Assembly: GCF_003334255.1 (NCBI RefSeq)
Contig: NZ_QOWU01000032.1
From: Escherichia coli
GTDB taxonomy: Bacteria > Pseudomonadota > Gammaproteobacteria > Enterobacterales > Enterobacteriaceae
DNA: 57,148 nt
Reading direction: 5' to 3' (one strand)
This document shows, piece by piece, positions 44,491 to 44,531 of this stretch; position 1 is the stretch's first letter; the number at the start of each line of letters is the position of its first letter. A model generated the notes under the pieces. It saw only the letters and a list, made by a program, of their open reading frames with translations. It ran no database searches and was not told the DNA's origin. Position numbers and translations under genes: made by a program.

Positions 44491-44520
44491 ATGCCACGGA
44501 TTGCGTGGCATTATTATTTT
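44491..44520 (+). terminator. Rho-independent terminator after yfeY, abutting the yfeX RBS
   Basis: ATGCCACG-gattg-CGTGGCAT (8-bp stem) followed by TATTATTTT; the yfeX SD (AGGAGG) and ATG follow within 12 nt. Confidence 0.5.
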
Positions 44521-44531
44521 CAGGAGGAACA

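Follow-up and report, generated by a model that had tools for sequence, protein, structure and literature searches.

A conserved, leaky intrinsic terminator between yfeY and yfeX of Escherichia coli that probably sits within the yfeX promoter and leader region

The DNA analysed here (the window) is a 57,148-nt stretch of Escherichia coli, of which positions 43800-45700 match many complete genomes with 100% identity; the region is found in all 5,426 genomes. RefSeq names the genes in this part yfeZ, yfeY (RpoE-regulated lipoprotein), yfeX (porphyrinogen peroxidase) and pbp4B, and the initial annotation, made from the letters of the sequence, had already assigned the names yfeY and yfeX correctly. 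In K-12 MG1655 these genes lie on the minus strand, and an NC_000913.3 coordinate equals 2595077 minus the window position; NC_000913.2 coordinates are those of NC_000913.3 minus 1978. Between yfeY and yfeX lies a spacer of 95 nt that holds a terminator, two promoters, a transcription-factor site and a ribosome-binding site. Eighty Enterobacteriaceae loci were fetched with a YfeX query, and 78 distinct sequences were aligned. The flanking genes and the starts of upstream transcription are as follows:

43861..44436, + strand: yfeY coding sequence, lipoprotein of 191 aa (ORF and RefSeq annotation)
44532..45431, + strand: yfeX coding sequence, DyP-type porphyrinogen peroxidase of 299 aa (ORF and RefSeq annotation)
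42910 (K-12 2552167), + strand: transcription start site (TSS) of ypeA-yfeZ-yfeY(-yfeX) transcripts (SMRT-Cappable-seq, PMC6131387)
43802..43829, + strand: sigmaE-type promoter motif for yfeY, GGCACTT-N16-TCCAA, 59 nt 5' of the yfeY ATG

The sigmaE-type motif recurs 58-61 nt from the yfeY ATG in 70 of the 78 orthologous loci and is probably the sigmaE promoter of yfeY. In the Kim 2012 data, the yfeY TSS corresponds to window position 43631, 230 nt upstream and inside yfeZ, with 7 reads; the sigmaE promoter was presumably silent in the unstressed cultures of that study. Further upstream, ypeA and yfeZ overlap by 14 nt (43351-43364) in the K-12 annotation, an overlap suggesting that the two genes may be translationally coupled in the ypeA-yfeZ-yfeY transcript. 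At the other end of the locus, REP/BIME-type repeats lie at 45440-45670 between the convergent yfeX and pbp4B, with sub-threshold Rfam matches to naRNA4 (36.3 bits, E = 5e-4) and ES036.

The initial annotation had pointed to an intrinsic terminator with an 8-bp stem placed directly against the yfeX ribosome-binding site. We recovered this arrangement, with a stem that is one pair longer:

44490..44512, + strand: terminator hairpin, 5' arm 44490-98, loop 44499-503, 3' arm 44504-12; fold -13.5 kcal/mol
44513..44520, + strand: T-rich tail ATTATTTT, with RNA 3' ends at 44517 (LB OD 0.4) and 44516 (LB OD 2.0)
44522..44527, + strand: yfeX Shine-Dalgarno (SD) sequence AGGAGG, read from the sequence; AGGA is invariant and the next GG nearly invariant in the 78 sequences

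The 8 bp are formed by the arms ATGCCACG (44491-44498) and CGTGGCAT (44504-44511) around the loop GATTG (44499-44503), and pairing of A44490 with T44512 extends them to a 9-bp stem, AATGCCACG (44490-98) with CGTGGCATT (44504-12). With 9 bp, 5 GC pairs and a 5-nt loop, the structure falls within the range of G+C-rich terminator stem-loops (about 5-14 bp). The T-rich tail, TATTATTTT, ends at 44520, the SD starts at 44522 and the yfeX ATG lies at 44532, just as first annotated. Within ATTATTTTC, 6 of 9 residues are T, with two A and one C interrupting, which still qualifies as a U-tract; because ATTATTTT is interrupted, the element would, by sequence alone, rate as a moderate rather than a textbook terminator. 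A terminator scan returned the hairpin as the top terminator-like site in 43000-46000. Under stringent criteria (a perfect stem of 8 bp or more that includes 4 or more GC, a 3-8 nt loop, and 6 or more T among the 9 bases that follow), only two loci were found on both strands of the 57-kb window. Dinucleotide shuffling gave 0.04 loci per shuffle over 100 shuffles and never more than 1, so the yfeY-yfeX hairpin is not a chance occurrence. The other locus, at 11126-11149 (+), has the stem AGGCGACA, a loop of 8 and the tail TTTTTATTG. We also noted that a GTG at 44505, in the 3' arm of the hairpin and in frame with yfeX, opens the longest ORF (308 aa), and ORF callers can thus place the yfeX start 27 nt too early, at this GTG. 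In Citrobacter, an ATG in the 5' arm shares the yfeX reading frame.

Published RNA 3' ends map to this tail. Term-seq ends, which may also reflect 3'-exonuclease trimming back to a stable hairpin, were reported at K-12 2550560(-) in LB at OD 0.4 (30,332 reads; window 44517) and at 2550561(-) in LB at OD 2.0 (41,034 reads; window 44516) (Adams 2021, PMC7815308). Both positions belong to the T-tract: the stem ends 4-5 nt upstream of them, and the yfeX ATG begins 15-16 nt downstream. The Term-seq list for M63 glucose from the same study does not contain the 44516/44517 end (PMC7815308). The end is Rho-independent: its Rho score of 0.76 is not significant, it lies outside the significant Rho termination regions, and coverage across the site was unchanged by bicyclomycin (121/88 without and 114/63 with the drug; PMC7815308). 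The drop from 121 to 88 is confounded by initiation at the two yfeX promoters P1 and P2. A model-based intrinsic terminator score of 10.86, against a threshold of 3, was assigned to the site in that study (PMC7815308). The label 'orphan' given to the end by Adams 2021 is due only to its distance of 81 nt beyond the yfeY stop (PMC7815308), and what is labelled an 'orphan 3' end in a 5' UTR' is here no more than the 3' terminus of the gene upstream.

Full-length transcripts show that termination at this site is incomplete. SMRT-Cappable-seq lists the isoforms b2434-b2433-b2432 and b2434-b2433-b2432-b2431 from one TSS, 2552167 (PMC6131387). These are the terminated and read-through forms of the same transcript, and their common start indicates that the terminator is both real and leaky, as had been proposed for read-through into yfeX. 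The sigmaE data are split: yfeY was up 3.3-fold on sigmaE induction with yfeX showing no significant change (Bury-Mone 2009), whereas two other regulon studies classed yfeX as sigmaE-dependent. This split points to partial termination. RegulonDB listed yfeY-yfeX as a single operon. The yfeY-yfeX hairpin is a conserved intrinsic terminator that ends yfeY transcripts with some read-through.

yfeX also has starts of its own. Both methods that mapped them, the 5'-RACE-seq of Kim 2012 and SMRT-Cappable-seq, enrich 5'-triphosphate ends and are independent of each other. The starts and the promoter elements placed by them are:

44487 (K-12 2550590), + strand: yfeX TSS P1, 45-nt leader with the whole hairpin; two TSS datasets
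44474..44479, + strand: putative P1 -10 hexamer TAAAAT, 7 nt upstream of the mapped TSS, without a recognisable -35
44522 (K-12 2550555), + strand: yfeX TSS P2, 10-nt leader whose first nucleotide is the first A of the SD; two TSS datasets
44485..44514, + strand: putative P2 promoter, overlapping the hairpin and placed by the TSS at 44522
44485-44514, + strand: putative P2 elements, -35-like TCAACA at 44485-90, 18-nt spacer with TG at 44506-07 and G44508, -10 CATTAT at 44509-14

In the Kim 2012 data, P1 is represented by 17 reads with a 5'UTR of 45 and P2 by 8 reads, a low support, with a 5'UTR of 10; SMRT-Cappable-seq has b2431 transcripts starting at both 2550590 and 2550555 (PMC6131387). 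The P1 TSS lies 3 nt before the stem, and the hairpin occupies +4 to +26 of the P1 transcript. The extended -10 of P2, TGgCATTAT (44506-14), would coincide with the 3' arm of the hairpin. The initial annotation had offered a choice between read-through of a leaky yfeY terminator and a promoter that lies upstream of the terminator or overlaps it, making the hairpin part of the yfeX leader. Both routes occur side by side, the second on the strength of the 44487 start in two datasets, and the start at 44522, past the T-tract, adds a third. The mapping of starts and 3' ends that had been suggested as a check was thus available from published K-12 data, with starts at 44487 and 44522 and 3' ends at 44516/44517.

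Upstream of P1, a TTG just past the yfeY stop is part of a candidate activator site:

44438..44451, strand not assigned: candidate site for FNR as a class II activator, TTGCG-TCTG-AACAA, with its midpoint at -42.5 relative to the P1 TSS; the exact site is putative

The candidate matches TTGAT-N4-ATCAA at 7 of 10 positions, with its centre at -42.5 against the canonical -41.5. Its right half is poorly conserved, and the distance from the TTG to the -10 box is fixed in 77/78 sequences. An FNR ChIP-seq peak with its centre at window 44462 has been assigned to yfeX (Myers 2013, PMC3688515); it was called by MOSAiCS, NCIS and CisGenome, was not seen by ChIP-chip, and has a PatSer motif score of ln p = -7.48 (PMC3688515). 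The sigma70 ChIP signal, with its centre at window 44498, was 132.7 under aerobic and 524.3 under anaerobic conditions (adjusted p = 5e-114; PMC3688515), a 4-fold higher anaerobic occupancy of the yfeX spacer. In glucose minimal medium, no FNR-dependent change in yfeX expression was recorded (Table S9, PMC3688515); the strongest yfeX induction has been described in anaerobic log phase (Dailey et al. 2011). FNR binds at yfeX in vivo, and FNR-dependent activation is not supported by the expression data. The FNR and anaerobic sigma70 data fit a conserved promoter of the form TTG-N33-TAnAAT without a -35 box.

Conservation across the Enterobacteriaceae covers the P1 -10 box, the hairpin and its distance to the ATG. 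yfeY lies directly upstream of yfeX in all 79 loci with upstream sequence. Among the 78 aligned sequences the spacer is 85-109 nt long, in most cases 92-97, and one further locus has 157 nt. Invariant or near-invariant columns among the 78 are the P1 -10 box, the SD, the ATG, the GCCAC/GTGGC core of the stem, an A-tract and the TTG just past the yfeY stop. In the -10 box, hexamer positions 1, 2 and 6 (T, A, T) never vary and TAnAAT is kept in 75/78; the sequence between the TTG and the box varies freely despite the fixed distance (77/78). The stem core is identical in 76-77 of the 78, the stem begins 4-6 nt from the predicted P1 TSS in 62/78, and it ends 19 nt before the start codon in 38 sequences and 18-21 nt before it in 63/78. 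Pairing is retained in 87.6% of cells, compared with 25-57% when the 3' partner is slid. Two-sided changes occur in 17 cells against 5+-2 in shuffles (0/500 shuffles reach 17), among them compensatory replacements of GC by AU at the loop-closing pair (8 sequences) and of AU by GC (2 sequences); the covariation is modest because the stem core hardly varies. The loop has 4 nt in most genera, 5 in Escherichia and 3 or 6 in some.

A terminator-grade hairpin with tail is present in 63/78 sequences, and at least 5 T in the 9 residues directly 3' of the stem in 66/78, most other genera carrying CTTTTTTT. The Klebsiella/Raoultella and Kosakonia clades have a degenerate hairpin or tail, indicating that termination is not essential everywhere. 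Eight Klebsiella/Raoultella loci have a hairpin of about 6 bp with G-U pairs, and the clade has TGTATCATT in place of the T-tract, with the P1 -10 box and SD intact; co-transcription of yfeY and yfeX is probably tighter there. As the terminators of these clades are weakened and the -10 is kept, the promoter is conserved more strictly than the terminator.

Within E. coli, the spacer is identical to that of the window in 3,158 of 5,412 records. Only 44485 (T/C) and 44513 (A/C) vary among the sampled E. coli alleles, in all four combinations, and the stem is unaltered in all E. coli sequences examined. The two polymorphisms sit in the -35-like and -10 hexamers of P2. Other Escherichia species carry C at both sites, an allele in which the P2 hexamers are weak, whereas the T+A allele of K-12 and the window is nearer the sigma70 consensus, both changes improving the hexamers. 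Given the C+C state of the other species, T+A is probably derived. This suggests that P2 may be a recent E. coli promoter on the 3' arm and T-tract of the terminator. In one E. coli isolate, strain 405 (NZ_CM132948.1 1424262-1424423), the spacer matches up to CATTCTTATT and continues into unrelated TGCACAGAAAACCCCCAGCTAGGCTGGGGG, and yfeX is not annotated; an apparent rearrangement or insertion breakpoint lies exactly in the T-tract of the terminator.

Together, these data make it likely that a partial, factor-independent terminator is set within the promoter and leader region of yfeX. Transcripts would arrive from the ypeA promoter and, under envelope stress, also from the sigmaE promoter of yfeY; a fraction would end at 44516/44517 and the remainder run on into yfeX. 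In this way the terminator may largely keep YfeX, a cytoplasmic peroxidase, out of the envelope-stress control that acts on the lipoprotein YfeY. Each P1 transcript, from a promoter with an FNR-bound site at about -42, would have to cross the terminator as a leader attenuator and would then carry a 5'-terminal stem-loop. P1 transcripts would themselves be attenuated, with a predicted RNA of 31 nt (44487-44517), and the P2 start at 44522 would bypass the terminator.

How complete termination is separates this model from one in which yfeY transcription stops efficiently and fully at the hairpin, with yfeX transcribed only from P1 and P2 and negligible read-through. Such a full stop would account for the 3.3-fold sigmaE response of yfeY but not yfeX (Bury-Mone 2009), for the high predicted terminator score of 10.86 and for the existence of yfeX-only transcripts. 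However, SMRT-Cappable-seq captures full-length 5'-triphosphate transcripts and lists the b2434-b2433-b2432-b2431 isoform, yfeX was sigmaE-dependent in two other studies and shares one RegulonDB operon with yfeY, and the T-tract is interrupted, so that complete termination appears unlikely. A different possibility is that the stem-loop acts mainly after transcription, as a 5' stabiliser of P1 mRNA and a 3' exonuclease barrier on yfeY mRNA, with the 3' ends arising by processing. Few unpaired nucleotides before a 5' stem, as in the ompA-type stem-loop, protect mRNAs from 5'-end-dependent decay. The P1 transcript has only 3 unpaired nt before its stem, the stem lies 4-6 nt from the predicted TSS in 62/78 sequences, and termination and trimming are indistinguishable by Term-seq. 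Yet a stabiliser does not need the T-tract, which is conserved (at least 5 T in 9 in 66/78) and required for termination; the 3' end falls in the T-tract 4-5 nt past the stem, as intrinsic termination predicts, and a terminated ypeA-yfeZ-yfeY isoform exists. Stabilisation could, moreover, coexist with termination instead of replacing it, and we regard a mainly post-transcriptional role as quite improbable.

It is very doubtful that the palindrome ATGCCACG-N4/5-CGTGGCAT is primarily a DNA operator of a dimeric regulator that only secondarily resembles a terminator. The arm spacing varies (loop of 3-6), which is rarely tolerated by a dimer operator of fixed spacing, the changes seen are compensatory, and the T-tract and Rho-independent 3' end are explained by an RNA role only; there is no known candidate protein. 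These points outweigh a GCCAC/GTGGC core that is identical in 76-77 of 78 sequences, beyond what RNA pairing alone requires, and a location that would be ideal for a repressor, covering +4 to +26 of P1 and overlapping P2.

Several other readings of the spacer were rejected. Masking of the SD by an anti-SD run, CCGCCGCC (44453-60), would apply to the read-through RNA only; the segment is not conserved, the regional fold is no better than shuffles (z = -1.2) and the SD is similarly accessible in all isoforms. The mean unpaired probability of 44522-34 was 0.47-0.71 in folds of the read-through, P1 and P2 RNAs, which indicates that the ribosome-binding site is not occluded by the hairpin and rules out the anti-SD. 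A leader peptide from AUG 44491, the only AUG of the leader, has no SD, and its frame shifts between genera with loop length. As for a ribosome-mediated attenuator, the hairpin forms in every isoform fold and no competing structure was found. A sigma54 promoter reading of TGGCAT-N5-TTTTC fails on the -12 GC, which is absent in all genera. No Rfam match was found in 44437-44531 at E<=1 with permissive filters.

A partial terminator inside a promoter and leader region has a close precedent in E. coli, the frdD terminator/ampC attenuator. There, as at yfeX, the downstream promoter lies at or just after the end of the upstream gene, and one hairpin between the TSS and the start codon is both the terminator of the upstream unit and an attenuator of the downstream leader; the ampC promoter takes in part of frdD. 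The ampC attenuator, in work of Jaurin and Normark from 1981, is reportedly growth-rate dependent, with a 41-nt leader RNA. Both halves of this arrangement are found at yfeX: two independent datasets place a yfeX TSS, 44487, upstream of the yfeY terminator hairpin, and upstream transcripts end at the hairpin, as seen in the b2434-b2433-b2432 isoform and the Term-seq 3' end. The distance from 3' end to ATG is likewise similar, 15-16 nt for yfeX versus 18 nt (LB OD 0.4) or 16 nt (LB OD 2.0) from the frdD 3' end to the ampC ATG (PMC7815308). By analogy, the yfeX element appears to work like the frd/ampC arrangement. However, a short leader RNA and regulated read-through are established for ampC, whereas for yfeX the leader RNA is predicted and regulated read-through hypothetical. 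Unlike ampC, yfeX has a further start, P2, on the downstream side of the hairpin, as well as an activator-type site bound by FNR; yfeY-yfeX was also catalogued as one operon, which frd and ampC were not. Other intrinsic-type 3' ends lie within 20 nt of a start codon at nhaA>nhaR, ygiW>ygiV, yjeT, yggN, slyB and rpsP, so the terminator-to-start geometry is uncommon but not unique.

The element also resembles the leaky terminators between co-oriented genes in rpsU-dnaG-rpoD, rplKAJL-rpoBC and the read-through operons of SMRT-Cappable-seq, with which it shares differing expression levels, a downstream gene that answers to its own promoter and isoforms from a shared TSS. In contrast to those operons, yfeY-yfeX packs all elements into 95 nt, and a single nucleotide separates the T-tract from the SD. 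Like mRNAs with ompA-type 5' stem-loop stabilisers, the P1 yfeX transcript has a stem-loop within about 3 nt of its 5' end, but the yfeX element has a T-tract and terminates transcription, and a stabilising effect on yfeX mRNA is putative.

A more ambitious version would make the hairpin a regulated switch, with P1 read-through set by growth rate, oxygen or a trans-acting factor and with the terminated RNAs, an 81-nt yfeY 3'UTR under sigmaE control and the 31-nt P1 leader RNA, acting as small regulatory RNAs. We give this little credence; if true, one 23-nt element would integrate envelope-stress and anaerobic signals. For the partial terminator, genome-scale data explain the element and appear not to have been assembled for the yfeY-yfeX locus before: a literature search on yfeX with terminator or attenuator, which was not conclusive, found no relevant paper. 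The locus provides a compact, conserved natural example in which one element is a terminator and probably also a leader attenuator and promoter -10, and would be useful to annotation pipelines and to the design of synthetic-biology parts. Overall, yfeY-yfeX turns out not to be the simple sigmaE operon of the catalogues: yfeX is a mostly independent, FNR-bound and probably anaerobiosis-responsive unit that takes a partial share of upstream transcription, which fits the proposed link of YfeX to anaerobic respiratory or heme metabolism.
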